Shown here: positions 12,630-60,531 of the stretch, piece by piece
How positions within the stretch are numbered: the first letter of the stretch is position 1
Layout of the letters: every line of letters begins with the position of its first letter
Assembly (NCBI GenBank): GCA_021735655.1
Contig: JAIPGM010000002.1
Location: forward strand, 1 to 64,000
Length of the DNA: 64,000 nucleotides
Source of the DNA: Candidatus Omnitrophota bacterium
Lineage (GTDB): Bacteria; Omnitrophota; Gorgyraeia; Duberdicusellales; 4484-171
Reading direction: 5' to 3'
Position numbers and translations under genes: made by a program
The notes under the pieces: generated by a model
Seen by the model: only the letters and a program-made list of their open reading frames with translations
What the model was told of the DNA's origin: nothing
Databases searched by the model: none

Positions 12630-12901
12630 GCTTGCCGATGAGCATCTGGTCGCGCAAAAGCTGCGGCAGAGGATCGAGGAGGCCGTGGAGCGCTTGCCGC
12701 TCAAATAGCGGGTGACTATCATTCTGCACGGTCCGGAGGGTTTTCTGTTGTCGATGCCGGGGTATCCTTCCTGAACGGCAGGATAAAATTGAACAATTTC
12801 TCTTCAAAAAAACATAAATTTATTGTACCCTTTCGCTTTTTTCGGCATCAAAATATACATAGGGAAGGTGAGTAAAATAGTGGGGCCTAAAAGAATATTA
12901 T

Positions 12902-13402: not shown

Positions 13403-13711
13403 ACAGCGGCCCTTAAAGAGGCATTCGGGATAAAAAAAGGGGGGGGTGATTACGATGGCCAGACTGAAAAATATCAAGGAAAAGGCTAAGCGGGTAATCG
13501 AAAAAGCAAAAAGTAAAATGAAATGTAAATGTTGAAAGGCCTTGCTGTTAAAGGGAGTGCATTACAAATGAGATGAAAAACAAAAAGGTCAGAAGTGACT
13601 CATCTGCGCAAGATTGCCATTGAATAGCCAGCTAGCATCGTAGCAAGAAAGACTCAAGATCCTCTGCCGACGCTTTAAAAAAAGGGGGTCTTGAGTTTAT
13701 TTTTTCCCTTA

Positions 13712-13756
13712 TTGGACCAAGGTCCAATTTACATCATTTTTTCATTTTGATAATAT
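13712..13756 (+). promoter_or_regulatory. Second copy of the TTGGAC-N4-GTCCAA palindrome + TTTACA-17-TAATAT promoter, upstream of the nrnA ... arsSM operon
   Basis: ttggaccaaggtccaa tttaca tcattttttcattttga taatat. Compare 2818-2862. Confidence 0.55.
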
Positions 13757-13862
13757 CTATGTGTCAATTTAGGGCGGAGCATTCTCCGACAGAAGTTAAC
13801 TTAAAAATAGCCTAAAAATTAGGCAAAAGAGTATGCCGGGTTGCTGGGAAATTAGCTGAAAA

Positions 13863-18214: not shown

Positions 18215-20224
18215 ATGAACCCTTTTTTGAATGTTTTAGAATCACAAAATATACCGAAAGAATCCTGTTTAAAAAGAGCAGAGTTGACCACCCTGCAGGT
18301 TAATATGGGCGACCTTTGCAATCAAAGCTGTTCGCATTGTCATGTGGGCTCCTCGCCCCAGGGAAAGAAGATCATGCCGCTGGAAGTGGTTGACCGAATT
18401 TTAGAGTTTCTTTCAAAAAACAGAGGGCTGATATTGGATATAACCGGCGGCGCGCCGGAACTCAATCCCAATTTCGATTATTTCCTTGAGAAAGCAAGGC
18501 CGCTGGCCAGGGAGATTGTCATAAGGTCGAATCTGACCGTGTTTTTTGAACCCGGTAAAGAATACTTGCCCGAATTTTTTAAAAGGAATAACATACATCT
18601 TATATGTTCACTTCCCTGTTATGAGGAAAAAAATGTAGACGCCCAAAGAGGCCTGGGTGTATTTGAAAAGAGTATAAAAGCGCTTCAGCTGCTAAATAGC
18701 TGTGGATACTCTCAAGATAAAGAACTGGTCTTAGACCTTGCATATAATCCTAAAGGTATAAATCTGCCTCCTCAACAGGATATCCTTGAAAGAGAGTACA
18801 GAGAAAACCTTAAAAAAAGTTACGGAGTGGAATTTAACAGACTCGTTGCTATGACCAACGTTCCGATAAAAAGATTCAAGGAATATTTGGAAGCCAACGG
18901 CGAATATAGTAATTATGTCCGGCTCCTGGAAGATAATTTCAATCCTGATACGGTTACCGGTATTATGTGTCGGCGGTATCTCAGTGTAGGCTACGACGGA
19001 AAATTATACGACTGCGATTTTAACCAATCACTTAACTGGGCTTTAAAGGACGAGAAGGCTAAGCCTCTTAGTATAGATAAAGTAGATATAAAAGATATTG
19101 AAAACAGAGATGTTATGGTGGGGGAGCACTGTTTTTCATGTACCGCAGGCTTCGGTTCAAGCTGCCAGGGAGCGCTTGACATTAAGGAAACCGTAAAAGC
19201 GTATTACGGCAAAGTCCTTAAAACCACAAAAGACCTAAAGACGACCGCCTGTTGTTCAGTAGATGCTATGCCTAAAAAGCAAAGAGAATACTTGGCTAAA
19301 ATCCACCCCGAAATTTGTGATAAATTTTATGGCTGCGGCTCTCCTATCCCACCGCTTTTAAAGGACCTAAAAGTTTTGGATTTAGGTTGTGGCACAGGCA
19401 GGGATACTTATCTGGTTTCACAGATGGTAGGGAGCAGGGGTTTTGTTATCGGCGTCGACATGACCGATGAACAACTCGATATAGCGAGGAAGCACATTGA
19501 TTACCAGACAGAAAAATCCGGTTTTAAAAAGCCTAATGTTGATTTTAGGAAGGGTTATATAGAAAACCTAAAAAGTGTCGGTATAAAGGATAACTCTATA
19601 GACTTGGTTATATCAAACTGCGTTATTAATCTTTCACCGGATAAGATAGGGGTGTTCTCGGAAGTTTTCCGTGTCTTAAAACCGGGAGGTGAATTTTATT
19701 TCGCCGATGTATTCTGCGGCCGCCGGATGCCGGAACACCTCAAGCATGACTCGGTACTTTACGGTGAATGCCTGGGAGGGGCGCTTTACATAGAGGATTT
19801 TCGCCGTAGTTTAAGAAAAATCGGCTGTTTGGATTATAGAGTAGTAACTTCCCGAAGAATAGCGCTTAACAATAAAGAAGTTGAAGAGAAAGTCGGCGGG
19901 ATTGATTTTTACTCTATGACTATACGGGCTTTTAAGCTGGATGATTTGGAAGACATCTGCGAAGATTATGGCCAGACTGCTGTTTATCTTGGCACGATAT
20001 CCGGATGCGCGCACCAATTCAAACTTGACGATCATCATCTGTTTTTTACCGGCAAACCGATGCTTGTGTGTGGGAATACCGCTTCAATGCTTTCAAATAC
20101 ACGGTACGGTAAACATTTTAAAATAGTTGGAGATAAAAGCCGTCATTTTGGGCCGTTTCCCTGTGGGCCAACTCCCGCGGCATCAAAGACCGATGTAGTC
20201 AAAACCGGCGGCAGTTGTTGTTAA
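18215..20224 (+). CDS. arsSM: Fusion of arsenosugar-type radical SAM protein (ArsS-like) and arsenite S-adenosylmethionine methyltransferase (ArsM-like)
   Basis: N-term has the radical SAM cluster motif CNQSCSHC plus LSVGYDGKLYDCDFNQSL and a Cys-rich CFSCTAGFGSSC region. C-term has ArsM Cys pairs (TACCS, YGCGSP), the SAM motif VLDLGCGTGRD and VLKPGGEFYFADV. One continuous 669-aa ORF. Confidence 0.7.
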   Translation: MNPFLNVLESQNIPKESCLKRAELTTLQVNMGDLCNQSCSHCHVGSSPQGKKIMPLEVVDRILEFLSKNRGLILDITGGAPELNPNFDYFLEKARPLAREIVIRSNLTVFFEPGKEYLPEFFKRNNIHLICSLPCYEEKNVDAQRGLGVFEKSIKALQLLNSCGYSQDKELVLDLAYNPKGINLPPQQDILEREYRENLKKSYGVEFNRLVAMTNVPIKRFKEYLEANGEYSNYVRLLEDNFNPDTVTGIMCRRYLSVGYDGKLYDCDFNQSLNWALKDEKAKPLSIDKVDIKDIENRDVMVGEHCFSCTAGFGSSCQGALDIKETVKAYYGKVLKTTKDLKTTACCSVDAMPKKQREYLAKIHPEICDKFYGCGSPIPPLLKDLKVLDLGCGTGRDTYLVSQMVGSRGFVIGVDMTDEQLDIARKHIDYQTEKSGFKKPNVDFRKGYIENLKSVGIKDNSIDLVISNCVINLSPDKIGVFSEVFRVLKPGGEFYFADVFCGRRMPEHLKHDSVLYGECLGGALYIEDFRRSLRKIGCLDYRVVTSRRIALNNKEVEEKVGGIDFYSMTIRAFKLDDLEDICEDYGQTAVYLGTISGCAHQFKLDDHHLFFTGKPMLVCGNTASMLSNTRYGKHFKIVGDKSRHFGPFPCGPTPAASKTDVVKTGGSCC

Positions 20225-20237
20225 TAAGATATAACCA

Positions 20238-20256
20238 TTCCGCCGCGTCGGCGGAA
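20238..20256 (+). terminator. GC-rich hairpin ttccgccg-cgt-cggcggaa followed by an A/T run. Likely the arsSM terminator.
   Basis: 8-bp perfect stem with a 3-nt loop read directly. Its reverse-complement twin lies at 20310-20328. Confidence 0.45.
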
Positions 20257-20566
20257 AAATTTGCTATCTGAAACACCTTTGTTCTATTAGCTTATTTTAA
20301 TACGGTCAATTCCGCCGACGCGGCGGAATTGGTTTGACAATACGGTAGATTAAACAAGGAAGTAAATAATGAACTCTACACCCGAAGAAATCAGAGATAT
20401 GGAACATATGCACAGGAAAATGAGCTATAACCAGATTACGGAGTATATTTACGCGGGAAACAACCTGTGTTGTCAGACACATTTTGAGATGGAGTTATTA
20501 GCAAAAGGAATTTCCGCTAAATACAGTGCAAAAAGCCTTTTTAGTTAATTATACCGGGAGGTCCTG

Positions 20567-21583
20567 ATGTCAAAAAAACAATGGTTTATAATATTATTTT
20601 TAATAAGCGGGGTATTTATGAGGGATAATTCATTAGCTGAGGAAAATTTGAAGAAGGCTACATTTGCCGGAGGATGTTTTTGGTGCATGGAGGCGGATTT
20701 TGAGAAAGTCAAAGGTGTCGAGAAGGTGATTTCCGGATATACCGGCGGGGCCGGTGAAAACCCGGTTTATGAAGATTACAGTCAAAAGGGGCATATTGAA
20801 GCCGTGGAAATTTATTACGATCCTTACCGAATAAGTTATCGGAAATTACTGGATATTTTTTGGACCAAGATAGACCCGATTGATGCCGGCGGCCAGTTTT
20901 GCGATCGGGGCCAGGCTTACACCACAGCGATTTTTTACCATAACCGGGAACAAAAGCAGTTGGCTGATGAATCAAAACAGCGGTTGGAGGAGTCAGGCAG
21001 ATTAAAACAGCCCATTGTTACTAAAATCATCAAGGCCGGCAAATTTTATCCGGCTGAAGACTATCATCAGGATTATTATAAAAAGAACCGGTTAAGATAT
21101 AAATTTTACCGGTTTAACTGCGGCCGCGATCAGCGTCTCAAAGAGATCTGGGGCCGGGTTAGCAAGGATGAGTTAAGAAATAGGTTAACTCCGATGCAGT
21201 ATAAAGTTACTCAAGAAGACGGCACAGAACCGGCGTTTAAAAACCAATACTGGGATAATAAAAGAGAGGGTATCTATGTTGATATTGTTTCCGGCGAGCC
21301 GCTGTTTAGCTCTTTGGATAAATTCGAATCCGGCACTGGCTGGCCAAGTTTTACCAAGCCGCTTGAGCCAGACAATATTGTCGTAAGGGAAGACAGGAGC
21401 TGGTTTTCGCTGAGGACGGAAGCAAGAAGCAAACAGGCCGATTCGCACCTTGGCCATGTATTTGATGACGGCCCAAAACCCACGGGGTTACGCTACTGCA
21501 TAAATTCAGCGGCTTTAAGGTTTATTCCTAAGGAAGATTTAGAGAAGGAAGGGTACCCAGAATATAAAAAACTTTTTGAATAG
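20567..21583 (+). CDS. msrAB: Bifunctional peptide methionine sulfoxide reductase MsrA-MsrB, secreted
   Basis: Signal peptide. MsrA GCFWCME motif. C-terminal MsrB motif RYCINSAAL with upstream [10 protein letters not shown]. Confidence 0.85.
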
Positions 21584-21593
21584 GGGTATAAAA

Positions 21594-22235
21594 ATGAAAG
21601 CCGTAGATTCAATTATTTTTGATCTTGACGGAACGCTGGTTGACTCAAAAGAAGATATAGTAAATGCCGTCAATTTCACTTTAAAAAAACTGGGCCTTAG
21701 CCAGAAACAAGCTGATGAGATCGCCTCCTATATCGGTACGGGCGCCGAAGACCTAATCAGAAAGGCAATCGGTGATAAAAACAGAGATCTGTTTGATAAG
21801 GGGATTTCTATATTCGAGGATGATTACAAAAAGCACTCGGCAACAAAGAGTAAACTTTATCCGCACGTGGAAGAGGTTTTAGAGTATTTTAAAAATAAAA
21901 ATCTTTTTATTGTCACTAACCGAAAAAAAAATATGGCACAGATCACTTTAAACAGTTTAGGGATTAATAAATATTTTAAAGATGTCGTAGGCGGGGATGA
22001 TGAAACCTGCCTGAAACCCTCCGCATGTTCATTGGAGAAGGCTTTAGGAAACGTCCAAGACAGAAAAAGAATCATTATAGTCGGGGATATGGATTTGGAT
22101 GTGCTAACCGGTAAAGAAGCCGGCATATTGACCTGTGCTGTCACTTATGGAATAGGGAAGAGGGATGATATAGTCAAGGTAAAACCGGATTATCTAGTCG
22201 ATGATTTGTTGCAACTTAAGGAGATAATTAGATGA
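21594..22235 (+). CDS. HAD-superfamily hydrolase (phosphoglycolate phosphatase-like)
   Basis: IIFDLDGTLVDS (motif I), VTNRKK, GDMDLDV (motif IV). ATG at 21594 preferred over the track start. Confidence 0.7.
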   Translation: MKAVDSIIFDLDGTLVDSKEDIVNAVNFTLKKLGLSQKQADEIASYIGTGAEDLIRKAIGDKNRDLFDKGISIFEDDYKKHSATKSKLYPHVEEVLEYFKNKNLFIVTNRKKNMAQITLNSLGINKYFKDVVGGDDETCLKPSACSLEKALGNVQDRKRIIIVGDMDLDVLTGKEAGILTCAVTYGIGKRDDIVKVKPDYLVDDLLQLKEIIR

Positions 22236-22279
22236 TCTATGGCAAAAATCTATGAGAATATGGATATAAGGGAGAAGAT

Positions 22280-23329
22280 ATGGACAACAATAAAAAAATA
22301 TTTCTTTATGATTCGAAGCCTTATGATCAAGAAGCTTTTGATCAGGCCAATAAAAAGCATGGTTTTGATATCCAGTATTTCAATGGGCATCTAAACCATA
22401 ATACAGCTTGTTTGTCTAAGGGCAGTGATGCGGTTTGTGCTTTTGTTAACGATACAATAGATAAGCCGGTAGTGGAAGTTCTTAAAGAGTGTAATATCGG
22501 CTTAATTGCCTTACGCAGTGCCGGATATAACAATGTTGATTTAAAGGCAGCTTACGGCACTATCCATGTGGCCCGGGTGCCGGGGTATTCTCCTTATGCG
22601 GTGGCCGAACACGCCAGCGCTCTTTTATTGAGCCTGAACCGGAAAACTCATAAAGCTTATCACCGGACACGCGAGGGAAATTTTTCAATCAACGGCTTGA
22701 TCGGCTTTGACCTTCACGCTAAAACCGCTGGGGTTATCGGAACCGGAAAGATCGGGCGTTGTTTGATATCGATTCTGAAAGGCTTTGGGATGAAGGTCCT
22801 GGCCTATGATGTTTATCCCGATGAAGAATATGCAGAGGCTAGCGGCATTAGCTATACGGACTTGCCCGAGCTGTATGCTAAATCGGACATTATTTCTCTG
22901 CATTGCCCGTTAAACAAAGATACCTACCATTTGATCGACAACCAAAGTATAAACCAGATGAAGCCGGGTGTTTTTTTAATAAATACCGGCCGGGGAGGCC
23001 TGGTAAAAACTCAAGACCTCATTGAAGGGTTAAAGAGCGGTAAAATAGGCGCTGCCGGCCTGGATGTGTACGAAGAAGAAAGCGAGTATTTTTTTGAAGA
23101 TTTTTCAGCTTCGATGATCAGCGATGATATCCTGGCCCGGCTTTTGACCTTTCCCAATGTACTTATCACATCACATCAGGGATTTTTCACAAAAGAAGCG
23201 TTGAGCAATATTGCCGAAACTACTTTAGCTAATATTAAAGAGTATTTTGAAGGAGGTTTTTTAAAGAATGAAATCTGTTACCGCTGCGATAAACAATGCT
23301 GCAAGAAACAAAAACAGCGCTGCTTTTAA
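22280..23329 (+). CDS. ldhA: D-isomer-specific 2-hydroxyacid dehydrogenase (D-lactate dehydrogenase-like)
   Basis: GVIGTGKIGR NAD-binding motif and catalytic R/E/H region. The last ~20 aa (Cys-rich) arise from overlap with the sigma-factor gene and may not be real. Confidence 0.75.
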   Translation: MDNNKKIFLYDSKPYDQEAFDQANKKHGFDIQYFNGHLNHNTACLSKGSDAVCAFVNDTIDKPVVEVLKECNIGLIALRSAGYNNVDLKAAYGTIHVARVPGYSPYAVAEHASALLLSLNRKTHKAYHRTREGNFSINGLIGFDLHAKTAGVIGTGKIGRCLISILKGFGMKVLAYDVYPDEEYAEASGISYTDLPELYAKSDIISLHCPLNKDTYHLIDNQSINQMKPGVFLINTGRGGLVKTQDLIEGLKSGKIGAAGLDVYEEESEYFFEDFSASMISDDILARLLTFPNVLITSHQGFFTKEALSNIAETTLANIKEYFEGGFLKNEICYRCDKQCCKKQKQRCF

Positions 23330-24095
23330 GCAGAAACTAAAGAGTATTTTTATCGCTTACCAGGATAAAATTTATGGCCTGGCTTTGAGTATCTGCCGCA
23401 ATCCTAAAGACGCCGAAGATATCACTCAAAATACATTCAGTAAGATTATTCTTAATTTGGATAAATTCCGCGGCCAATCCAATATTGCTACCTGGATTTA
23501 CCGGATTAGCTATAACGAAGCTTTGATGTTTTTACGGAAAAAGCGCCGCGATTTGAGGTTACAGGACAATATCGATTATCATATCTTAAAAGACAGATCC
23601 GCGGTATTGGCGGATTGGCCGTTGCTTCCTGATGATTTATTGGTGAATAAAGAATTACACCGGAAAATCAATTCGTCCATACAAAGGCTGGATCTTAAGT
23701 ATCGCTTACCCTTGTTGTTGCATCATGTCCATGGCTTAGCGATAAAAGAGGCAGCTAAAGTTTTAGATATAAAGGCCAATTCCTTTAAAACCAGGCTCCA
23801 TCGGGCCTATCTAATGCTGCGGGGCGAGCTAACCGCCTATTTCGCCGATGCTCGGGAGGAAAAAATCGGTTTTAAAACATTGGTTTGCGATCGTTCGCTT
23901 AAATTCATTTATGATTATTCTTGCAATAAGCTCGGCAGCCGGCAGCGTTTAAGATTCGACCAGCATATTAAAGATTGCCGTCCCTGCCGTAGTTTTCTAA
24001 ACGATTATCAGCAGGCAATAAAAATAACTCAGTCTTTACAGTGTCGTGATTTACCAGAAGCGCTTCGGGAAAAACTAAAAACTCTTTTTACTTAA
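23268..24095 (+). CDS. ECF-type sigma-70 family factor with a C-terminal ZAS-like (H-x3-C-x2-C) zinc-finger extension
   Basis: Region 2 (DITQNTFSKIILNLDKFRG ... WIYRISYNEAL) and region 4 (LAIKEAAKVLDIKANSFKTRLHRA). An extra ~80-aa tail carries CDRS ... C ... HIKDCRPCRSF. Confidence 0.7.
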   Translation: MKSVTAAINNAARNKNSAAFKQKLKSIFIAYQDKIYGLALSICRNPKDAEDITQNTFSKIILNLDKFRGQSNIATWIYRISYNEALMFLRKKRRDLRLQDNIDYHILKDRSAVLADWPLLPDDLLVNKELHRKINSSIQRLDLKYRLPLLLHHVHGLAIKEAAKVLDIKANSFKTRLHRAYLMLRGELTAYFADAREEKIGFKTLVCDRSLKFIYDYSCNKLGSRQRLRFDQHIKDCRPCRSFLNDYQQAIKITQSLQCRDLPEALREKLKTLFT

Positions 24096-24106
24096 ATAAT
24101 AGATAT

Positions 24107-24162
24107 TTGAAACTTTTTTTATTTTTTAACATCTAAATCAGAATAAGGAGGTGAGGGTTATG
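24107..24162 (+). promoter_or_regulatory. ECF (sigmaE-type) promoter GAAACTT-N16-TCTAAAT plus conserved leader/RBS. Copy 1 of a duplicated ~56-58-bp element.
   Basis: ttgaaactttttttattttttaacatctaaatcagaataaggaggtgagggttatg. A near-identical copy is at 30909-30964. Confidence 0.6.
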
Positions 24163-24546
24163 TTAAGAAAGATATGTTCGTTGGGCCTTGGTTTGGTAAT
24201 GTTGTTTAGCCTGTCTGGATGCGCCTTGCTTTTAGCCGGGGCTGCCGGCGGCGCCGGAACAGCATTTTGGCTGGGCGGTAAGTTGGAAAGCGAAGTAGCG
24301 GCTAGTTACCAAAGGACTATCGATGCTAGCAAGCGAGCCTTGAGTTCGCTGGGTATGGAGATAGTTAAAGAAGCAAAATCAGATGAGGTTACTCAGATTC
24401 GCAGTGAGTACACTGATGGTAGAAAAGTCTGGTTAGATATCCGTAAGTTTAGCGAAAAAACTTCAAAGTTGGAAATTCGCGTTGGTGCCAAGGGTGATCA
24501 GGCAGCATCAACTAAGCTGTTGGAGCGGATCAAGAAATACCTTTGA
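24160..24546 (+). CDS. Lipoprotein (DUF3568-like)
   Basis: Lipobox LSGC after a hydrophobic signal, Gly-rich region. ATG at 24160 preferred over the GTG at 24151. Confidence 0.55.
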   Translation: MLRKICSLGLGLVMLFSLSGCALLLAGAAGGAGTAFWLGGKLESEVAASYQRTIDASKRALSSLGMEIVKEAKSDEVTQIRSEYTDGRKVWLDIRKFSEKTSKLEIRVGAKGDQAASTKLLERIKKYL

Positions 24547-24548
24547 TT

Positions 24549-26684
24549 TTAAGCTTCACAGGTTTTCCGGGTAAAGACATTGCAGATGAACCAAGGCATA
24601 AGGTAAAGGGCAATTAAGGCGGCCATCAAAGAACCGGCGATTATAATACCGCCAAAGCGTTGAGTAGGCGGAAATTGCGAAAAAAGAAATACCCCAAAAC
24701 CGAGGCCGATGATCAACAGAGTGTTAAATACCGGGTTCCAGAGATAAGTTCTTACTTTTTCCCAGCGCCGCCGGGTAGTTTTTTCTTCGGCTTTGATCCG
24801 GCGCCAGTATTTGACCATGTGGATCATCGTATCAATGCCGATAGCAATAGCCACATTCAACGAAGGAGCAGCCACTATATCCAGAGGCATGCCGATTAAG
24901 CCAATAGCGCCCAAGCTAATTAGGGGGATTATTAAAATTCCTAAAGTCATCGATAAACTTACTGGCAGCGAACGGGAAACCAGCCAGCTGATCAGGAAAA
25001 AAATAAACAACAATCGGAACAAGCCGAAGACCAGGCTTGAGCTTACTAGTTTTGCCAGGCGCCCCTGCAAGGCGTAGACCCCGCCGGTGATTTCCGGGAC
25101 AAAGCCGTTTTCGCGTACCAGTTCTTTTAATTCAGCAATGATTTCTAAACGGGTTTTTGTCCGTCCGGTTTCTTTCATCCGCAGTAGAAAAAGCCCGTTT
25201 TTTCGGTCAGGGCTGATAAAGATTTTTCCGATTTCGTTATGGCTGGGTTTTTCCATAATATTCAGAAGCCAATCCCAGCCTAAAAAGAAAGAAAAGGGAT
25301 GTTGTCTGGCCTGAGCCATTAAAACCGGCAGCGAGATCACACTGCCGACAGCTTGGTGTTTTTCTAAGGCAGTCTGGAGCTGCCATAATTGATTATAGCT
25401 TTTGGTGTTATTCAATTTATTTCCGCTTTCAGTCTTTACCACGATAATCAAAGGGTTACTGCCGCCGCTTTGATCAATATAGCGTAAGCCTTCAGTGATC
25501 GGGTCACTCTTTTTAAAATAACTGAATATTGAAGGGTCATTTTTCAACCAGGCTAAGCCCGGCAAAAGTAAGATGCTTAAGCCGATTAAGATTAAGCGAA
25601 AAGCTTTTTTTCGCACTTTTACTTTCTGATAAATAAACTGTTCGCTTTCTTCAAAATAATCATTTTTTACCTGGGAATTTTGAACCCGGCTCAAAAATAA
25701 AGGATAGATTAGATAGGCGCAAGCCATGGCGATAATTGCGCCCAGAGCGCCGGATATCCCTAGTTCACGCAGCGGCTTTGCTGGCACGGTAATTAAGCTT
25801 AAAAAGCCCAGTAAAGTTGTAAACATACTCCAAAATGATGGGCTTAAGGTGTATTGAATTGATTTCTTTATCCGTTGTTGATCGCCAGAAGTATAAGCCA
25901 GATGTTTCCAGTTATAGGTAAGAAAGATTATATGCGATAGAGTAAGTACAAAAGTAATCGTAGTTAAGTTTGCCGTAAGCAAGCCGATCTTAATATTAAA
26001 TACTTTAGCTGCGATTATAGTCAGCATGGCGGCGTTAAGGCAAGCTAAGAGTGTCCCGAGCAAAATAGACCAGGAACGGAAAATAAATAACATTAATCCG
26101 GCGAAAACCAAAAAAGTCAGCAAGGTAAACAGCCGGAAATCTCTAACTAAATTTTTTTGGATTAGTTTTGTGATGTAGGGGGCTCCGGAAATTCGCAGCC
26201 GGAAATTATCGCCGCTAGCTTTGTTTACTAGTTTTTCGATTGCCGTAAGGTTTTCTTCCAGGCCTTGGCCGGGCAGCACAGCAATGATGTTAGTGGATTT
26301 TTGATCATCGGCGATTAAAAGGCGCCGCCAGAGAGGGCTTTTTAAGCCGGTAGCAAAATCTCCCGGGCCGGTAGCCAGGCTGATCACACTGATTATTTGC
26401 GGTAGAGCATTGATTTTGGCACTTAGATCTTCAACTTTTTTAAGATAAAGCGGTGAGTCGATTTTTCCTTCAGCGCTGATGATCAGCTGATCATCCTGCC
26501 GCTTGAATATTTTTGAAATTCGGCCTTCAGCTTGAGCCTGAGGATCGTGGCTGGAAAAAAAGAAGTTTTGGTCTACTTGGGGGGTTAAATCGATATATTT
26601 AGCGATAACAAAGATATTGGCGGCGGTTAAAAGAATAATTAAAATAAATTTTAATTTTAAGGCCGCAGTTATTGCTTTAAGCAT
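24549..26684 (-). CDS. MMPL/RND-superfamily membrane transporter
   Basis: 711 aa with two 6-TM bundles each followed by a large soluble loop (RND/SSD architecture). Only gene on the minus strand. Confidence 0.6.
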   Translation of the reverse strand: MLKAITAALKLKFILIILLTAANIFVIAKYIDLTPQVDQNFFFSSHDPQAQAEGRISKIFKRQDDQLIISAEGKIDSPLYLKKVEDLSAKINALPQIISVISLATGPGDFATGLKSPLWRRLLIADDQKSTNIIAVLPGQGLEENLTAIEKLVNKASGDNFRLRISGAPYITKLIQKNLVRDFRLFTLLTFLVFAGLMLFIFRSWSILLGTLLACLNAAMLTIIAAKVFNIKIGLLTANLTTITFVLTLSHIIFLTYNWKHLAYTSGDQQRIKKSIQYTLSPSFWSMFTTLLGFLSLITVPAKPLRELGISGALGAIIAMACAYLIYPLFLSRVQNSQVKNDYFEESEQFIYQKVKVRKKAFRLILIGLSILLLPGLAWLKNDPSIFSYFKKSDPITEGLRYIDQSGGSNPLIIVVKTESGNKLNNTKSYNQLWQLQTALEKHQAVGSVISLPVLMAQARQHPFSFFLGWDWLLNIMEKPSHNEIGKIFISPDRKNGLFLLRMKETGRTKTRLEIIAELKELVRENGFVPEITGGVYALQGRLAKLVSSSLVFGLFRLLFIFFLISWLVSRSLPVSLSMTLGILIIPLISLGAIGLIGMPLDIVAAPSLNVAIAIGIDTMIHMVKYWRRIKAEEKTTRRRWEKVRTYLWNPVFNTLLIIGLGFGVFLFSQFPPTQRFGGIIIAGSLMAALIALYLMPWFICNVFTRKTCEA

Positions 26685-26796
26685 AGTTCTAGTTTAAATT
26701 ATATTTTTACTTAGTCAACCGCTAAATCAGCCAGATTTTCGTATTGGAAGCGCCGATATATGCTATAATAAGAGCAAAAATAATCAAGGGGCGATT

Positions 26797-28194
26797 ATGC
26801 AGTTAGCACGCAAAATTCTTTTTTATTTTTTTGTTTTGGCCTATTTAGTCCTCTGTCCTTTGCTTATTTTCTATTCTTTAGGCTATATTTATCAACCAAA
26901 AAAGAAAGATATTTCGCAAACCGGCCTGATCCACCTTGTCAGTATTCCGGCCGGAGCCCAGGTTTATCTGGATGGCCGGCGTTTCAAAGATAAAACTCCG
27001 GCTACGATCAGCGAACTTAATCCGGGAAGCTATCGGGTAAAGTTAAGGCTAAAGAACCGCCGGCCTTGGGTTCATGAGGTAACGGTTAAAGCGGGAAAAT
27101 CAGCGGCTTTTAAAAATATTCTCCTTTTGCCGCACAGTTTCGATAAAACAACTATCGGCCCCAAACGGGTTTATACCAATTTATATTCGCTAAAAAATTC
27201 CGACTATCTGATTGTTCAGCAAGGCCCCCGGCTTAAGGAATTTTATGTTTATGACTTAGCCGAAAAAAGTCTCAAAACCATTATTGATAAGGATTCTCAA
27301 TATGCCGAATTAGCGGTGGAGCGTTTATTCAGCGCTGCCGGCAGCACTTATCTGATTATCTACGGCGGTTCTTTATGGGACCGGCAGTATTTGCTTATTG
27401 ATTTTAAGGAAAAAAAGCCCGGTTTAAAAGAAATAAGCCGGCTTTTTTCTCGGCATCCCGATTGGCTGGTTTGGTCGGAAGATTTACCTGAGGATATTTT
27501 TTCTATTTATGGCGTCGGCCTCGACCGCTTGGACATTAAAAATTTATCGCTCTATCCGCAGTATTTTGAGAACATTAAGGGCTTTGGCTTGATGGATAAA
27601 CAGTTTTATGTCCTGGGCAAGGATAACTTGATCAGAAAATTAAGCCTGGATAAGCAGGAGGAGGCTATTCTATTTGAGGATGAACATTTGGGCCGGGAGT
27701 TGTTCGCCAAATCAGGGTTTTATCGCATAGAGCCGCTTAATAAGGATAAGCTTATTTTTTGGGGCCGGCGCGGTGACCTGGTGATGACTGTGCCGCCTTA
27801 TGCCATTTTTGATCAGGGGGTTTTGGGCATGGAATATGAGCGGTTTAACAGCCGGCTTCTGTTCTGGACCAAGCATGATATCTGGCTGGCCGAGTTTAAC
27901 GGCCAGGCCCAAGACGATGTTTTATTCAGGCAGCGCCTGCGCCTTAATAAGATATATGAAGGGGGCTTTAATTTAAGCCAATGCTTTTGGGTTTATAGCG
28001 CAAGCAATTTGCTGCTTAAAGACAAAACCGAGATTTATCTTTTGGGCTTAACTCCGGACGGCCGGCACCATAGAGAACATATTGTCAGCGCTAAACAAAA
28101 TACTGAAGTATTTTACTATGAGCCTGAAGGTTGTTTGTACTATTTAGATAAAAAGGGGGCCTTGGTGAAGCTTAAGCTTTTAGCGGCTGATTAG
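26797..28194 (+). CDS. PEGA-domain membrane-anchored protein
   Basis: N-terminal TM helix then a PEGA-like beta domain (SIPAGAQVYLDGRRFKDKTPATISELNPGSYRVKLRL). Confidence 0.5.
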   Translation: MQLARKILFYFFVLAYLVLCPLLIFYSLGYIYQPKKKDISQTGLIHLVSIPAGAQVYLDGRRFKDKTPATISELNPGSYRVKLRLKNRRPWVHEVTVKAGKSAAFKNILLLPHSFDKTTIGPKRVYTNLYSLKNSDYLIVQQGPRLKEFYVYDLAEKSLKTIIDKDSQYAELAVERLFSAAGSTYLIIYGGSLWDRQYLLIDFKEKKPGLKEISRLFSRHPDWLVWSEDLPEDIFSIYGVGLDRLDIKNLSLYPQYFENIKGFGLMDKQFYVLGKDNLIRKLSLDKQEEAILFEDEHLGRELFAKSGFYRIEPLNKDKLIFWGRRGDLVMTVPPYAIFDQGVLGMEYERFNSRLLFWTKHDIWLAEFNGQAQDDVLFRQRLRLNKIYEGGFNLSQCFWVYSASNLLLKDKTEIYLLGLTPDGRHHREHIVSAKQNTEVFYYEPEGCLYYLDKKGALVKLKLLAAD

Positions 28195-28207
28195 TAATAG
28201 AGATATT

Positions 28208-29854
28208 ATGGATTTTCAATATTCACGCCAGGGGGTTAAAGGTAGAGAAAAGAGTTGGCAGCGGTTTCTGGAGGTTCTGCCCGGGTTCCTGAGCTGGACA
28301 GTGATTATCGGAATAGTGGTGCTATCGGTGTTACAGCCTTTAACGGCGGCGGTGGTCATGATCGCTTTTCTGCTTTATTGGCTGCTGCGGCTTATCTACA
28401 TGAACATTTTTCTTTTGCTTTCGTATACCCGTCTGGAGATCGAAAAAACTACTGATTGGCAGGAGTGTATTGCCTCTGTGGACCGCTTGAAAGTCCAGAC
28501 GCCGGTTTTCTGCGGCCCGGCTAAACAGCGCAGCCTAAAAGAAACAATTGCCGCCCGTATCCATTACCGGCAATTGAGGAAGCTTAAAACAAGCAAGAAC
28601 CTGCCGCCTTCCTCGGAAAATATTTACCACTTGCTTATTTTGCCGGTTATCCGCGAAGCCCGGCAAGTGGTTGAGCCGGCTATTGAAGCGGTTAAGCAGG
28701 GGAGTTTTCCGGCCGAAAGATTTCTGGTAATCATTGCTCTTGAGGATTCAGCTTCCCAGAAAGTCAAGCAGCAGACGGATGAACTGCGGGAAAAATATAA
28801 AAACGTTTTTTTAGATTTTTTAGTCATTTTACATCCGGAAAACCAACCCGGGGAAGCTAAAGTTAAGGGGGCCAATGTAAGCTTTGCCGCCCGCCGGGCT
28901 CAAAGTTTTTTCAGCGCCAAAGGCATTAAGCCGGAAAATATCCTGGTATCCTGTTTTGACGCCGATACAGTGGCCAATCCCGATTATTTCAGCTGTCTTA
29001 CTTATCATTATCTGATAAATCCTCTTCGCCTGCAGTCAAGCTATCAGCCGATCCCGGTTTATCACAATAACATTTGGGAGGTTGCCGGTTTTGCCAGGAT
29101 CCTTGATATCGGCACTTCTTTCTTCCAGCTGATCGAAGCAACTAATCCCGGTAAATTGGTTACTTTTTCCAGCCATAGTATGAGTTTTAAGGCCTTGCAG
29201 GATGTCGGCTACTGGCCGGTGGATATGATTTCTGATGACTCGGCTATTTTCTGGAAGGCATTTATCCATTATCAGGGCAATTATCGGGTTAGGCCCATTT
29301 ATACAACAGTTTCTATGGATATTGCTGCCGGGCCAGGCCTAAAGGAGACTTTTACCGCAATTTATAAACAGAAGCGGCGCTGGGCCTGGGGAATAGAAAA
29401 TTTTCCGATTGTGGTAAGAGGATTTTTTCAGGTAAAAAAAATCAGTTTCAGCCGCAAGCTAAGTTACGGTTATAAATTGCTGGATGGTTTTGTCTCCTGG
29501 GCTACCTGGTCGTTTTTGTTATTACTCGGCAGCTGGCTACCGGCATTTTTTGCTTCTCGGGAATTTTCTTCCAGCACGGCCTATTACCTTGCCCCGCGCA
29601 TCCGCGGGATTATGTTTAGCCTGGCTTCAATCGGAATTATTATTTGTACGGTAATAAGTTTATTACTGCTTCCCCGAAGAGAAGGTAAACACGGAATCCT
29701 AATCGGGGTCAAACATATACTTGAATGGTTGTTTATCCCGGTGGCGCTTTTATTCTTGAGTGCCATACCGGCGCTTGATGCCCAAACCCGCCTTATGTTC
29801 GGAAAATATATGGAGTTCTCGGTAACCGGAAAATACCGTAAATCAAAATCCTAA
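28208..29854 (+). CDS. Processive family-2 glycosyltransferase (polysaccharide synthase, cellulose/chitin-synthase-like)
   Basis: N- and C-terminal TM helices flank a GT-A domain with motifs ALED, KVKGANVS, FDADTV (DxD), ISDDSA and Q-K-R-R-W (QxxRW). Confidence 0.7.
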   Translation: MDFQYSRQGVKGREKSWQRFLEVLPGFLSWTVIIGIVVLSVLQPLTAAVVMIAFLLYWLLRLIYMNIFLLLSYTRLEIEKTTDWQECIASVDRLKVQTPVFCGPAKQRSLKETIAARIHYRQLRKLKTSKNLPPSSENIYHLLILPVIREARQVVEPAIEAVKQGSFPAERFLVIIALEDSASQKVKQQTDELREKYKNVFLDFLVILHPENQPGEAKVKGANVSFAARRAQSFFSAKGIKPENILVSCFDADTVANPDYFSCLTYHYLINPLRLQSSYQPIPVYHNNIWEVAGFARILDIGTSFFQLIEATNPGKLVTFSSHSMSFKALQDVGYWPVDMISDDSAIFWKAFIHYQGNYRVRPIYTTVSMDIAAGPGLKETFTAIYKQKRRWAWGIENFPIVVRGFFQVKKISFSRKLSYGYKLLDGFVSWATWSFLLLLGSWLPAFFASREFSSSTAYYLAPRIRGIMFSLASIGIIICTVISLLLLPRREGKHGILIGVKHILEWLFIPVALLFLSAIPALDAQTRLMFGKYMEFSVTGKYRKSKS

Positions 29855-29856
29855 AC

Positions 29857-30900
29857 GTGAAAAGAGCTGTCAAATTTGCTTTATTTATTTTTCTCTTGAT
29901 AATCCCGCAAAAGACTTACGCTGAAGAAGTAAAGGTGGGGGTTACTTTCAGCCAGGTGCAGTGTGAGTATTTAGATTTGAATTGGCGAAAGATTTATAAA
30001 AAAACCATGGCTTTGGATTTAGATGTCATCCGTTTAGGGGCTTATTGGAGCCGGATTGAGAAAAGCCGCGATAAATTTGATTTTAGCGAACTTGATTGGC
30101 AGATTCAGCAGGCAAAAGAAAATAATATCCCGGTATTGCTTACTGTGGGAATGAAAGCGCCGCGCTGGCCGGAATATTTTATCCCGGCCTGGCTGATGAA
30201 GGATTTATCTTTTCGTTTTGGCTCAGCAGTTTCCGATCGAAAAATTATTAAGGAGCGTAGTCTGCTCTTTATCCGGCGGGTAGTTGAGCGCTACAAAAAG
30301 GAAGCTATCATTGTTGCCTGGCAGGTAGAAAATGAACCATTGAACAGAGCCGGCCCCAAGGATTGGCGGATACGGAACGATTTTTTGCAAGAAGAGATTG
30401 ATCTGGTAGAGAAACTGGATACGAGAAGCCGTCCTATCGTTATAAATGCGATGACTTATCTTAACCGAATATTAAGATTTTTTAACCGGCTTATTTACAC
30501 CAAGAATCCGGTCTATCAGATAATCGATATTGCTGATATTCCTGCTTTTAATATTTACTCGACTATCGGCCATAAACTCATTGGCCAGAAAATCTGTTTT
30601 TTGACTGTTCCTCAAAAACGTTTAAAATACCTTAAACGCTTTGTTGATTATGCGAAAGCTCAGGATAAAACGGTCTGGGTTACTGAGCTTCAGGCCGAAC
30701 CCTGGGAGCCAGGGGAATTGGTGCATATCCGTAAGGAAGCAGCGATTACCTGCAGAGCCGAAGATTTCCCGGTTAGTTTTGGGGAGCTGGAGTATTTAGG
30801 GGTGGATACGGTTTTTTTCTGGGGAGTTGAATACTGGTTTTACCGGATGCAGTATTATAAAGATAAAAGCTGGCTGGATGCTTTTGAGCAGATACCTTAA
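29857..30900 (+). CDS. Secreted glycoside hydrolase, clan GH-A (GH5-like TIM barrel)
   Basis: Signal peptide. Acid/base NEP motif (VAWQVENEPLN) and a later nucleophile Glu region (VWVTELQAEPWE). Confidence 0.55.
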   Translation: MKRAVKFALFIFLLIIPQKTYAEEVKVGVTFSQVQCEYLDLNWRKIYKKTMALDLDVIRLGAYWSRIEKSRDKFDFSELDWQIQQAKENNIPVLLTVGMKAPRWPEYFIPAWLMKDLSFRFGSAVSDRKIIKERSLLFIRRVVERYKKEAIIVAWQVENEPLNRAGPKDWRIRNDFLQEEIDLVEKLDTRSRPIVINAMTYLNRILRFFNRLIYTKNPVYQIIDIADIPAFNIYSTIGHKLIGQKICFLTVPQKRLKYLKRFVDYAKAQDKTVWVTELQAEPWEPGELVHIRKEAAITCRAEDFPVSFGELEYLGVDTVFFWGVEYWFYRMQYYKDKSWLDAFEQIP

Positions 30901-30908
30901 TCTAATTT

Positions 30909-30964
30909 TTGAAACTTTTCTTATTTTTTAGCATCTAAATTAAGATAAGGGGGTGAGGGTTATG
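30909..30964 (+). promoter_or_regulatory. Copy 2 of the ECF promoter/leader element (GAAACTT-N16-TCTAAAT ... GGGGGTGAGGGTTATG)
   Basis: ttgaaacttttcttattttttagcatctaaattaagataagggggtgagggttatg. About 90% identical to 24107-24162, including the start codon context. Confidence 0.6.
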
Positions 30965-31330
30965 CTAAAAGAAATAAGCCGGGAAGAATTAAGCGATTTG
31001 ATCGAATCAGGAGAAGATTTTAAATTAGTGGATGTTTTGAGCCGGGAAAGCTTTGCTAAAGGGCACATTAAAGGGGCGGTTTCAATTCCCTTAGCAGAAA
31101 TCGGCCGCAAATCCGCTAAGTTACTTAAAAAGAGGGATAAAATTGTAACTTATTGTGCTAGTTTTGAGTGTTCAGCCAGCACTACGGCTGCCAGGAAATT
31201 GATAGCTTTAGGTTATAAAAATGTTTTTGACTACAAAGGCGGGCTAAAGGATTACCAAGAAGGCGGCTTAAGCCTTGAAACCGGTGCAGGCCAGGCAGAC
31301 AAAAAATGCACTGTTTGTGGAGGAGCTTAA
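30962..31330 (+). CDS. Single-domain rhodanese (sulfurtransferase)
   Basis: Catalytic-loop Cys in IVTYCASFECSAS. ATG at 30962 preferred. Confidence 0.75.
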   Translation: MLKEISREELSDLIESGEDFKLVDVLSRESFAKGHIKGAVSIPLAEIGRKSAKLLKKRDKIVTYCASFECSASTTAARKLIALGYKNVFDYKGGLKDYQEGGLSLETGAGQADKKCTVCGGA

Positions 31331-31346
31331 GGAAAGGAGGCTTATC

Positions 31347-31655
31347 ATGAAACAAGAAAAAATGAAATTCCGCGTCTGTCCGTCGGTGAGTATGAACTAC
31401 AGCGATGATGGTAACAGCATTACCACTGAAATAGACTTGGCTGGAGTTAAGAAAAAAGATATCTCTTTAGAGAGTGGTAAAGCTGGTTTTTGCTTGAAGG
31501 CCGGCAAGGAAGACCTGATTTTTGACTCTTGTTATCGGTTTTGCGAAGAGGTAGATGCCGAAAAAATTAATGCTGAATTTCGCAATGGCATGTTGAGGAT
31601 AACTGCACCGGTAGAAAAGAGCTTTTTACATGCCAGAAAGATTTCGGTTCACTAA
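31347..31655 (+). CDS. Hsp20/alpha-crystallin family small heat-shock protein
   Basis: ITTEIDLAGVKKKDISLE ... FRNGMLRITAPV (IxI-like end). GGAGG RBS before the ATG at 31347. The track start at 31275 is an over-extension into the rhodanese gene. Confidence 0.75.
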   Translation: MKQEKMKFRVCPSVSMNYSDDGNSITTEIDLAGVKKKDISLESGKAGFCLKAGKEDLIFDSCYRFCEEVDAEKINAEFRNGMLRITAPVEKSFLHARKISVH

Positions 31656-31665
31656 GAAAAAAAAG

Positions 31666-31697
31666 GGGGGTAAAAATTTTTAAGCCCCCTTTTTTTA
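31666..31697 (+). terminator. Rho-independent terminator (GGGGGG ... GCCCCC + T7), symmetric with an A-run upstream
   Basis: aaaaaaaaggggggtaaaaatttttaagccccctttttttac read directly. Confidence 0.6.
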
Positions 31698-31887
31698 CTG
31701 TCCTCAAGCTAGCTATATCCTGTTATAATAGTTGCCTATGAGAATCTACATTCGTATAGCCGATGGCCGATTTATGGTAAGTCGATGATGCCGCTCGTCA
31801 CGGCGTTGGTGGAGTAGACAACACGCACCGTCATCCTGAGGAGGAGTGAAGCGACGACGAAGGATCTCAACAAAATTGGAGGGTAAA

Positions 31888-32214
31888 ATGAATGTTTTAG
31901 AAAATATCCCGTATAATGACGATAAAATGGGGAATCGCAAACTGGTCGATGAAAAGCACCTGCTTGTTATGCAAATAGCGTTAAAGCCGGGGCAAAGTGT
32001 GCCTCAGCATAACGCTAATTCAAACGTTCATCTTCTGGTTGTAAGGGGCAATGATTTAACGGTCAATCTTGACGGTGCTGATAATCAGGTTAAGAAAGGC
32101 GATCTATTGCCGGTCGCCTTTCAAGCGCCGATGATCATTAAAAACACCGGCAGTATTGACGCCACATTTTTAGTGTTTAAAACGCCCAATCCGTCAGAAA
32201 TGGGGACGGTATAG
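31888..32214 (+). CDS. Cupin-domain protein
   Basis: Small beta-barrel with a conserved His (PQHNANSNVHLLVVRG ... KKGDLL). RBS GGAGGG before the ATG at 31888. Confidence 0.55.
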   Translation: MNVLENIPYNDDKMGNRKLVDEKHLLVMQIALKPGQSVPQHNANSNVHLLVVRGNDLTVNLDGADNQVKKGDLLPVAFQAPMIIKNTGSIDATFLVFKTPNPSEMGTV

Positions 32215-32215
32215 C

Positions 32216-32584
32216 GTGAAAATCAGGGATAGTGGAATGCCGGATAAGGGGATGTGGAAAGGTTTCTTTTTCCCTGCTCAAACGTTAGAAACGCTCGAAT
32301 TCAATAGCGGTGTTCGCGATGCTGTGGAATTTGGGTGTGGCTATGGCACATTTACGATTCCGGCCGCTAGGATCATTAAAGGTGTGGAGTATCAAAGCAT
32401 AAGCACCGATAAATTCAATACTATTGAGCAGGCAGAGAAGTTTATGCAAGATGGTGGCAAAATACTTGCCTGCGGAACTTGTATTAAATCTCGCAATCAA
32501 GAAGGCACCGAAATGTGCCCGATCAACACGATGAAGGACATGTACGATATCGTTAAAGAATCTGATAAGGTAGTAACCTTTTAA
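32216..32584 (+). CDS. Hypothetical protein with a DsrE/DsrF-like C-terminal region
   Basis: GCGYG glycine-rich motif, then ILACGTCIKSR and a DVVKESDKVVTF end resembling the DsrE/TusD family. Start codon uncertain (GTG 32216 or ATG 32234). Confidence 0.35.
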   Translation: MKIRDSGMPDKGMWKGFFFPAQTLETLEFNSGVRDAVEFGCGYGTFTIPAARIIKGVEYQSISTDKFNTIEQAEKFMQDGGKILACGTCIKSRNQEGTEMCPINTMKDMYDIVKESDKVVTF

Positions 32585-32598
32585 AGGGCGGTGAACAT

Positions 32599-32958
32599 AT
32601 GATAAATATTTTACTTTATATTTTAATCGGCCTATTCGCGGGCGCGATAAGCGGTTTAATTGGAATAGGAGGGGGAATCATCATTGTTCCCGCCCTTATT
32701 TATCTCTTTAAGTTTTCTCAGCATGCAGCTCAAGGGACAACTTTGGCGATGTTAATACCGCCTATTGGCATACTGGCGGCTTTAGCGTATTATAAGCAGG
32801 GACACGTTAATTTTCCGGTGGCAGGATTTATATGTTTGGGATTTGTTATCGGCGGATTCTTAGGCGCGAAATTCGCGGTAGGATTTCCGGAAGTTGTGTT
32901 AAGAAAAATATTCGGAGCGTGTCTTTTGGGTATAGCGAGTTATATGATTATTAAATAA
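32599..32958 (+). CDS. TauE/SafE (TSUP) family 4-TM half-size membrane protein
   Basis: GAISGLIGIGGGIIIVPALIY motif typical of DUF81/TSUP. Confidence 0.65.
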   Translation: MINILLYILIGLFAGAISGLIGIGGGIIIVPALIYLFKFSQHAAQGTTLAMLIPPIGILAALAYYKQGHVNFPVAGFICLGFVIGGFLGAKFAVGFPEVVLRKIFGACLLGIASYMIIK

Positions 32959-33012
32959 TCGATAGGCGATGGGGTTCGCCGTTAACCGCCTCAACAGGCT
33001 GATAACTCCTAC
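32958..33012 (+). promoter_or_regulatory. Fluoride riboswitch (crcB RNA motif)
   Basis: ataGGCGATGGggTTCGCCgttAACCGCCtcaacaggCTGATAACTCCTAC matches the crcB-motif consensus, directly upstream of the crcB RBS. Confidence 0.85.
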
Positions 33013-33036
33013 TTAAATGAAAGGAGGGATTTGTCT

Positions 33037-33423
33037 ATGTTGAGGCTTTTTTATATTGCTTTTGGTGGCGCCGCTGGCGCTTTATTGCGCTATTGGGCTT
33101 CAGGGCTGGCACATAGAATCGGAGGCAGTAGTTTCCCGTGGGGGACATTGAGCGTTAATCTCATAGGATCTTTTCTTATAGGTTTTTTATGGGGAATGTT
33201 TGAATCCGTTATCGTTTCCCAGAATACGCGAATTCTGATTTTTATTGGATTGCTTGGTTCTTTTACGACATTCTCCACGTTTTCGCTGGAGAGCTTTCAC
33301 CTGATCCGGGACGGTGAATACGGTCTTTTCATAGCAAATATATTATCGAGTTTTGCATTAGGTATATTACTAGTTTTTGCCGGATATTTTTTAAGCCGTT
33401 TTTTATTTAACATAGCGCGCTAA
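33037..33423 (+). CDS. crcB: Fluoride ion channel CrcB/Fluc
   Basis: FGGAAGALLRY ... TLSVNLIGSFLIGF ... LGSFTTFSTFSLE. Confidence 0.85.
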   Translation: MLRLFYIAFGGAAGALLRYWASGLAHRIGGSSFPWGTLSVNLIGSFLIGFLWGMFESVIVSQNTRILIFIGLLGSFTTFSTFSLESFHLIRDGEYGLFIANILSSFALGILLVFAGYFLSRFLFNIAR

Positions 33424-59210: not shown

Positions 59211-59262
59211 CTGTTTTTATTTCTCCCTATTGAATCCCCCCCTGTAGTGGTATAATTTAACT

Positions 59263-59925: not shown

Positions 59926-59938
59926 GGGGAGGCATCCC

Positions 59939-60496: not shown

Positions 60497-60531
60497 AGGC
60501 CTGATTTGCATTGATAAGAGAAATAACTACT

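Follow-up and report, generated by a model that had tools for sequence, protein, structure and literature searches.

The window analysed here, which is the whole stretch of 64,000 nucleotides at positions 1 to 64,000 of contig JAIPGM010000002.1 from Candidatus Omnitrophota bacterium, carries a duplicated promoter-like element, with copy 1 (24107-24162) directly downstream of a sigma factor gene and copy 2 (30909-30964) upstream of a rhodanese gene. The explanation that best covers the whole is that both copies are promoters of the group 4 extracytoplasmic function (ECF) type and are recognised by the sigma factor encoded at 23268-24095, a reading that the comparative evidence makes likely. The features involved are the following.

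23268-24095, forward strand: ECF sigma factor (sigma2 and sigma4) with a fused, predicted soluble zinc-binding anti-sigma (ZAS) domain at its C-terminus; Pfam Sigma70_r2, Sigma70_r4_2 and, weakly, zf-HC2.
24103-24174, forward strand: copy 1 of the putative promoter-leader cassette, with -35 element GAAACTT at 24109-24115, -10 element TCTAAAT at 24132-24138, Shine-Dalgarno sequence AAGGAGGTGA at 24145-24154 and ATG at 24160.
24160-24546, forward strand: DUF3568 lipoprotein gene, downstream of copy 1; Pfam DUF3568, E 1.6e-25, lipobox LSGC.
30905-30976, forward strand: copy 2 of the putative promoter-leader cassette, with -35 element GAAACTT at 30911-30917, -10 element TCTAAAT at 30934-30940, Shine-Dalgarno sequence AAGGGGGTGA at 30947-30956 and ATG at 30962.
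30962-31330, forward strand: rhodanese-domain protein, first gene behind copy 2; Pfam Rhodanese, E 1.7e-19.
31347-31655, forward strand: small Hsp20/alpha-crystallin-like protein, second gene of the operon; Pfam HSP20.
31655-31699, forward strand: intrinsic terminator closing the rhodanese-Hsp20 unit; hairpin of -18.3 kcal/mol followed by U7, z-score -2.3.

The duplicated element is confirmed as an earlier note on this DNA had described it. That note had put the identity of the copies at about 90% over roughly 56-58 bp; the measured value is 50 of 56 bases (89%), and 53 of 60 in the register that begins at 24103 and 30905 (24103-24162 versus 30905-30964). By a repeat finder the similarity is traced over 72 nt (24103-24174 versus 30905-30976, family D5), 85% of them identical, with the copies 6802 nt apart, and a 53/60 pair is expected by chance anywhere in the window only about 1e-9 times, even with the T-rich composition of the copy itself. 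Both copies contain GAAACTT, a spacer of exactly 16 nt and TCTAAAT, as claimed, and they are the sole exact matches to this pattern in the window. The common ribosome-binding and start context also stands: the leader after the -10 element reads AAGGAGGTGAGGGTTATG in copy 1 (24145-24162) and AAGGGGGTGAGGGTTATG in copy 2 (30947-30964), and its consensus AAGGrGGTGAGGGTTATG is an extended Shine-Dalgarno sequence with the ATG. No further occurrence of this leader is found in the window at up to 3 mismatches (0.10 expected), so a generic ribosome-binding cassette was rejected, the leader being confined to the two copies. Copy 1 begins 10 nt past the stop codon of the sigma gene (24093-24095), as in the orthologous loci, and its transcription start is predicted near 24142-24146. 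The positions of copy 1, directly after the sigma/ZAS gene and before the lipoprotein gene, and of copy 2, before the rhodanese-Hsp20 operon, agree with the earlier description.

The pattern GAAACTT-N16-TCTAAAT with 2 mismatches gives 3 matches in the window against 1.9 expected, which is uninformative alone, so a weight matrix was required. The matrix was built from 10 sites adjoining orthologous sigma genes in other genomes, with the window excluded and with two informative blocks only. The orthologous sigma genes lie on 14 contigs from a genome scan (L001-L014), of which 12 are labelled Omnitrophota, one Margulisiibacteriota and one Planctomycetia; further loci came from contig look-up (L161, L163, L164, L172, L173), and a metagenome scan for more orthologs returned mostly distant ECF sigma factors. 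In most orthologs the sequence directly after the sigma stop codon is nGnAAC(C/T)TT, 13 unrelated bases and gCATCTAAAt, and the consensus of the matrix is TGnAACyTTT-N11-gCATCtAAAt. In the window the matrix gives 29.9 bits to copy 2 (at 30907), 27.1 bits to copy 1 (at 24105) and 19.9 bits to a third site at 12821, and the next match has 13.0 bits. In 300 first-order Markov simulations of the window the mean number of matches of at least 18 bits was 0.07 and the highest score 21.9 bits, and 886 kb of control loci, around unrelated ECF genes and DUF3568 genes, gave zero matches of at least 18 bits. The 274 kb around 18 sigma orthologs gave 14 such matches, none of them farther than about 1 kb from the sigma gene, and 11 of the 14 start between -18 and +85 nt from the sigma stop codon on the same strand. 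Matches are also present in four held-out loci that were unused in building the matrix (L008, L161, L164 and L173). A site at 46002 (family D4) was considered as a further member and rejected, because it falls within a coding sequence, lacks a -10 block and is not among the matrix matches of at least 10 bits.

Between genomes the -35 and -10 blocks have identities of 0.79 and 0.83, the spacer one of 0.28 and the downstream sequence one of 0.37, and the AAC core is nearly invariant in 15 genomes (1.7 bits per column). The spacing AAC-N18-TCTAA, which equals that of GAAACTT-N16-TCTAAAT, is identical in 17 sites from 15 genomes, with L001 and L163 deviating by +2 nt. This pattern is the classical footprint that a two-block promoter with fixed spacing would leave. 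The sigmaE-type consensus that the earlier note had proposed fits as well, since both copies have an AAC-containing -35 element, a 16-nt spacer and a TCnAA-class -10 element, which together with the variable spacer and the conserved linkage to the sigma gene correspond to the architecture of sigmaE/sigmaW-type promoters.

The sigma factor of the window matches only the region 2 and region 4_2 domains of Pfam and has neither region 1.1 nor region 3, as in ECF sigma factors. Its closest solved relative by sequence is SigW of Bacillus subtilis (E 7e-23), followed by SigH, AlgU and sigmaE, and the fold matches of the AlphaFold2 model (pLDDT 84.5) rank as in the sequence search; sigma2 of the model superposes on region 2 of sigmaE bound to its -10 element with a TM-score of 0.85. 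The protein continues into an extra helical domain (residues about 200-275) with the pattern C207-x25-H233-x3-C237-x2-C240 and a conserved C259, whose helices are predicted at pLDDT above 90. None of these five Cys/His residues varies among 35 full-length homologs (250-275 aa), and the members of this set that are named by source all come from Omnitrophota. Pfam zf-HC2 is matched by 19 of these 35 orthologs, with a best E of 1.1e-9, and only weakly by the protein of the window.

The domain has the H-x3-C-x2-C motif with a further ligand about 25 residues upstream in a helical domain of about 80 aa, which is the sequence signature of a ZAS domain, and a profile of the extension against the PDB gives RsrA, RsiW and DdvA as its top three matches (E 0.018-0.034). 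Relatives at 35-44% identity (L082-L098, L106) have no extension, and each is then followed by a separate soluble protein of 80-90 aa with the ZAS motif. The extension profile aligns with these separate anti-sigma proteins at an hhalign probability of 96.7% (E 4e-10, 70 columns), which indicates that the extension is a class I ZAS anti-sigma domain gained by fusion of the sigma and anti-sigma genes. It is hydrophilic, ends at residue 275 and shows by eye no hydrophobic stretch or transmembrane segment, as a soluble domain would. The fused layout is a mildly unusual architecture on a well-known kind of element.

Because the C-terminus of the sigma factor is itself a soluble RsrA-like ZAS domain, the protein is probably a one-protein redox switch, with the redox signal deduced from the kind of domain. 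In the predicted mechanism, the reduced, zinc-loaded ZAS domain would hold sigma2 and sigma4 in cis, and oxidation of its Cys ligands would free them. The freed sigma factor with RNA polymerase would then bind TGnAACyTTT as the -35 and gCATCTAAAt as the -10 element, and transcription would start a few bases after the -10 element, so that the leader would have about 15 nt and start with the strong Shine-Dalgarno sequence.

The genes behind the motif in other genomes suggest what the switch may control. A rhodanese ortholog (51-60% identity) is the first or second gene behind the motif in L001, L003, L006, L009, L012, L013, L163 and L164, and it is followed by an Hsp20-like homolog in L012 and L013. 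Rhodanese, with or without Hsp20, is the only conserved predicted target of the motif and its putative core target. Other genes are found behind the motif elsewhere: the first gene is an isochorismatase in L008; small Cys-rich open reading frames (ORFs) precede a cluster of flavodiiron, rubrerythrin, rubredoxin, glutaredoxin and TrxR genes in L173; a short ORF precedes 2-oxoacid:ferredoxin oxidoreductase genes in L002; and no long ORF lies before the terminator in L161. The neighbourhoods of the orthologs are dense in genes for MsrAB, AhpC, DJ-1, thioredoxin, glutaredoxin, rubrerythrin, desulfoferrodoxin and flavodiiron proteins, and the window itself holds msrAB and a trxB-like gene. The ZAS domain together with these thiol- and oxygen-stress neighbourhoods favours a thiol or oxidative stress signal over an envelope or heat signal. 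The earlier note had read the two copies as the direct regulon of the adjacent ECF sigma factor, responding to envelope, thiol or heat stress; the regulon part gains support from the linkage of motif and sigma gene that recurs in other Omnitrophota, and as to the signal, the neighbourhoods speak for thiol or oxidative stress more than for the envelope or heat.

Several points weigh against this reading. The dependence of both copies on the sigma factor is one that we infer from adjacency and co-conservation, and the matrix scan of the source genome covered the window and 7.5 kb beyond its end, the latter without a matrix site. Two orthologous loci, L007 and L172, have no site; in L001 and L163 a -35-like TTGAAC lies 2 nt further from a perfect GCATCTAAAT; and L004, L005 and L014 carry the motif on the other strand, 5' of the sigma gene. 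Neither the sigma gene nor the msrAB-HAD-dehydrogenase genes have a site of at least 14 bits anywhere upstream, so that an autoregulatory site is lacking, which is atypical of classical ECF sigma factors and usual for those with regulatory extensions. With no terminator to stop it, a transcript begun at copy 1 would continue in antisense into the convergent MMPL gene. The relative placement of the domains in the AlphaFold2 model is uncertain (pTM 0.42), so inhibition in cis by the ZAS domain stays a predicted step. Finally, unfused relatives use the same motif, so it could be read by another ECF sigma factor of that clade whose gene lies at a different place in the genome.

This last point leads to the first alternative, in which the copies are real ECF promoters read by such another sigma factor, and the adjacent sigma-ZAS protein is incidental or shares them. 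The motif of the unfused relatives (35-44% identity) is indistinguishable from that of the window: in L092, L095, L098 and L106 it lies just upstream of their own sigma/anti-sigma operon, as in ordinary autoregulation, and L097 has a 24-bit site before a rhodanese homolog. The missing autoregulatory site at the sigma gene is also in its favour. However, in 14 independent genomes the motif goes together with the fused sigma gene and mostly starts no more than 85 nt from its stop codon, and the window contains no second ECF sigma gene besides 23268-24095, so this alternative appears improbable.

The relation between the two copies themselves has to be read from the genes around them, which Pfam assigns as follows.

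20567-21583: msrAB.
21576-22235: HAD hydrolase.
22280-23329: 2-hydroxyacid dehydrogenase.
24549-26684, reverse strand: MMPL gene, convergent with the DUF3568 gene.
26797-28194: PEGA.
28208-29854: GT2.
29857-30900: glycoside hydrolase (GH).

Between copy 1 and copy 2 the spacer is 91% identical, and the 24 nt that follow the -10 block are 83% identical. Since spacer and leader are common to the copies of the window and not to different genomes, the copies are paralogous duplicates of the whole cassette and did not evolve as two independent sites. The DUF3568 lipoprotein is well conserved in Omnitrophota, its homologs reaching 69% identity. No motif was found upstream of the DUF3568 orthologs in the four examined, all from other Omnitrophota, so a conserved lipoprotein target was rejected, and copy 1 is seemingly a promoter captured in this lineage, with the lipoprotein gene as a putative lineage-specific, recent recruit. 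Three of these four orthologs are at or near PEGA-GT2(-MMPL-GH) clusters, and the fourth, L166, is not. In L167 the order is msrAB-HAD-PEGA-GT2-...-MMPL(-)-...-GH-DUF3568-...-TauE, which is the gene set of the window without the dehydrogenase-sigma pair and without rhodanese-Hsp20. The 6.8-kb block between the copies, which stand at both of its ends, holds the DUF3568 lipoprotein, MMPL, PEGA, GT2 and glycoside hydrolase genes. A foreign origin of this block was rejected, its GC content and skew being unremarkable and PEGA-GT2 and DUF3568 being native neighbours in relatives.

The simplest account of this arrangement is that an ancestral module with the order sigma, promoter, rhodanese(-Hsp20) was joined with a native envelope/polysaccharide cluster, and that the 60-72-bp cassette was left at both junctions of the 6.8-kb block. 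Copy 1 would then keep the ancestral position behind the sigma gene and now drive the lipoprotein gene, while copy 2 would keep the ancestral rhodanese-Hsp20 operon. The order of these events is reconstructed from the gene orders, and gene conversion may have occurred between the copies.

A second alternative, of the same low probability as the first, treats the repeat as a rearrangement scar that flanks a 6.8-kb insertion or translocation, with only copy 2 functional and copy 1 a silent or decaying relic. The copies do share spacer and leader, which are unneeded for promoter function, DUF3568 orthologs elsewhere lack such a promoter and copy 1 fires into a convergent gene. Nevertheless, copy 1 keeps all the conserved positions of both blocks (27.1 bits), its Shine-Dalgarno sequence and ATG are intact and correctly spaced before a conserved, intact lipoprotein ORF, and it is placed exactly like the active-looking site of the orthologs, 10 nt after the sigma stop codon. 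The stop codons of the DUF3568 (forward) and MMPL (reverse) genes are 2 nt apart (24546-24549), and a terminator is absent between them.

A third alternative, which takes the copies for promoters of the housekeeping (sigma70) type that have a strong ribosome-binding cassette and no relation to the ECF sigma factor, is very improbable. TTGAAA at 24107-24112 matches TTGACA at 5 of 6 positions and the region is AT-rich, but no TATAAT-like hexamer lies 16-18 nt from TTGAAA, a consensus scan of 20000-33000 gives 19 sites with none at either copy, and conservation between genomes falls on AAC and TCTAAA rather than on the sigma70 hexamers. A regulatory RNA acting in cis (leader, thermometer or riboswitch) or a transcription-factor operator, which the identity of the copies through the 5' leader and the Hsp20 gene downstream could suggest, is the least probable of all, because the leaders fold no better than shuffled sequences and have no common structure (z-scores -1.45 and +0.76), no Rfam match lies at the copies (the sole one in 11-34 kb is a fluoride riboswitch at 32956), neither block is palindromic, and it is the two blocks at fixed spacing that are conserved across genomes while the leader is not (0.37).

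Besides the two copies, the window contains a weaker candidate site.

12821-12860, forward strand: third candidate site, 19.9 bits, with -35-like GTACCCT at 12825-12831 and -10 element TCAAAAT at 12848-12854.

This site (TATTGTACCCTTT...GGCATCAAAAT) has the correct spacing and a weaker -35 element (ACC instead of AAC), and its TCAAAA variant of the -10 element is also found in L006, L011 and L173. Its neighbours are a thioredoxin-reductase-like gene on one side (11691-12629) and on the other a 166-aa ORF without Pfam match (12902-13402), and its spacer and leader are unrelated to those of copies 1 and 2. Two homologs of the 166-aa ORF were found. The one in L010, found by tblastn and cut by the contig end, is about 770 nt upstream of the sigma ortholog and beside a gene that is ferritin-like by eye, and the one in L169 follows a rubredoxin gene with no room for a promoter. 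The site is a plausible candidate member of the regulon.

Some orthologous loci have the motif before stretches without evident coding capacity. Three orthologs with the order def-sigma-PilZ have the ECF-type motif upstream of the sigma gene and on the strand opposite to it: L004 (8490-8654, reverse strand), L005 (9030-9192, reverse strand) and L014 (9205-9351, reverse strand). No ORF is found behind the motif in these three loci, which have instead a 13-bp hairpin with the C-rich loop CCCACCCC together with an intrinsic terminator. For the three sequences RNAalifold gives 26 pairs, 12 of them with compensatory changes, and the hairpin RNA matches no Rfam family. This transcript is a candidate ECF-dependent small RNA. 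In L161 (10848-11100, forward strand) the roughly 250 nt after a motif of 21.4 bits behind the sigma ortholog have ORFs of 10 aa only, and a terminator-like hairpin comes next; this may be another non-coding transcript.

Other elements of the window were recorded as well. A fluoride riboswitch (Rfam RF01734, 62.7 bits) at 32956-33018 on the forward strand, directly 5' of crcB (33031-33423) and a DUF190 gene, is a known, ordinary element. A 52-nt intergenic direct repeat, 85% identical between 2812-2863 and 13706-13757 (family D10), contains the palindrome ATTGGAC-TAAG-GTCCAAT and lies upstream of a response-regulator gene and of a putative DHH-type phosphoesterase gene; it is probably a shared transcription-factor operator. 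Between a radical-SAM/methyltransferase gene and msrAB, two copies of the GC-rich hairpin TTCCGCCGnCGnCGGCGGAA stand around about 60 nt (20229-20335), and a short ORF follows at 20369-20548. Four paralogous genes with type IV pilin-like N-termini (MKKSFTLIELIVVIAIIAILAAII...) occupy 59252-63644, and their 5' regions are repeated at 70-86% identity (families D1-D3).

Comparison with known systems shows what is shared and what is different. The promoter consensus of Escherichia coli sigmaE (RpoE) is GGAACTT-N16-TCnAA, and the window resembles it in AAC followed by TT in the -35 element, in the 16-nt spacer and in the TCTAA/TCAAA -10 element. The conserved -10 block of the window is longer (gCATCTAAAt), and its sigma factor shares only about 22-27% identity with RpoE. 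The regulator in the window is a cytoplasmic ZAS domain fused to the sigma factor, whereas that of sigmaE is the membrane protein RseA, and the targets in the window would be cytoplasmic thiol and stress genes, in contrast to the envelope genes of sigmaE. SigW of B. subtilis uses TGAAAC-N16-CGTA, so the -35 sequence TGAAAC is identical, while the -10 element is TCTAA in the window and CGTA for SigW. Its partner RsiW is also a ZAS anti-sigma factor, but a separate membrane protein that is removed by proteolysis, and SigW is autoregulated.

Streptomyces SigR-RsrA and Mycobacterium SigH-RshA (ECF12) respond to thiol-oxidative stress, use GGAAT-N18-GTT promoters and are positively autoregulated. 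The ZAS domain of the window is likewise soluble and has the C-x25-H-x3-C-x2-C spacing of RsrA, which is also its top PDB match, and genes for Msr, Trx and Grx abound in the neighbourhood and in the likely regulon. The fusion of the anti-sigma domain, the promoter different from GGAAT-N18-GTT and the lack of an autoregulatory promoter set the window system outside ECF12, though it would work like an ECF12 system.

ECF41 sigma factors have their target promoter beside the sigma gene rather than upstream of it, a position that the putative target promoter of the window shares. Like the extension-bearing ECF sigma factors, the one of the window is a one-component protein with no separate anti-sigma gene. 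One-component ECF sigma factors that carry extensions at the C-terminus comprise ECF41 (SnoaL-like), ECF238/CorE (Cys-rich) and ECF48/52/53 (ZAS and transmembrane helices) (PMC8999054, PMC7826278, PMC3426412), and in ECF48/52/53 the extension reaches about 400 aa, with a zinc finger, likely ZAS, followed by one or two transmembrane helices (PMC8999054, PMC7826278). The window protein differs from ECF48/52/53, since its extension has about 80 aa with a soluble ZAS domain only and its orthologs have 250-273 aa; from ECF41, since it has no SnoaL match in Pfam; and from CorE, as it has neither the CxC linker nor the Cys-rich tail, and the first two differences place it outside those groups. No description of a soluble sigma-ZAS fusion was found in the searched literature, which did not extend to the descriptions of groups in the supplement of the ECF classification. 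On this basis a tentative proposal, with slightly less than an even prospect of being right, is that the fusion of an ECF sigma factor with a soluble RsrA-like anti-sigma domain forms a previously undescribed self-contained redox sensor, non-autoregulated and with a very small, rhodanese-headed local regulon that grows by cassette copying, here to an envelope lipoprotein, and that in sister lineages a small RNA whose loop is C-rich stands under the control of this promoter.

For an uncharacterised clade of ECF sigma factors in Omnitrophota, a phylum without cultured model organisms, the analysis gives a testable promoter consensus (TGnAACyTTT-N11-gCATCTAAAt) and a putative core target, rhodanese with or without Hsp20. 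The duplicated cassette is a clean example of how a regulon may grow through the copying of a promoter together with its leader, and the soluble sigma-ZAS fusion could become a compact, orthogonal, redox-responsive one-protein switch for synthetic biology. The current understanding of ECF signalling is not overturned by these results, which describe a bacterial switch of an ordinary kind, found in an uncultured phylum.

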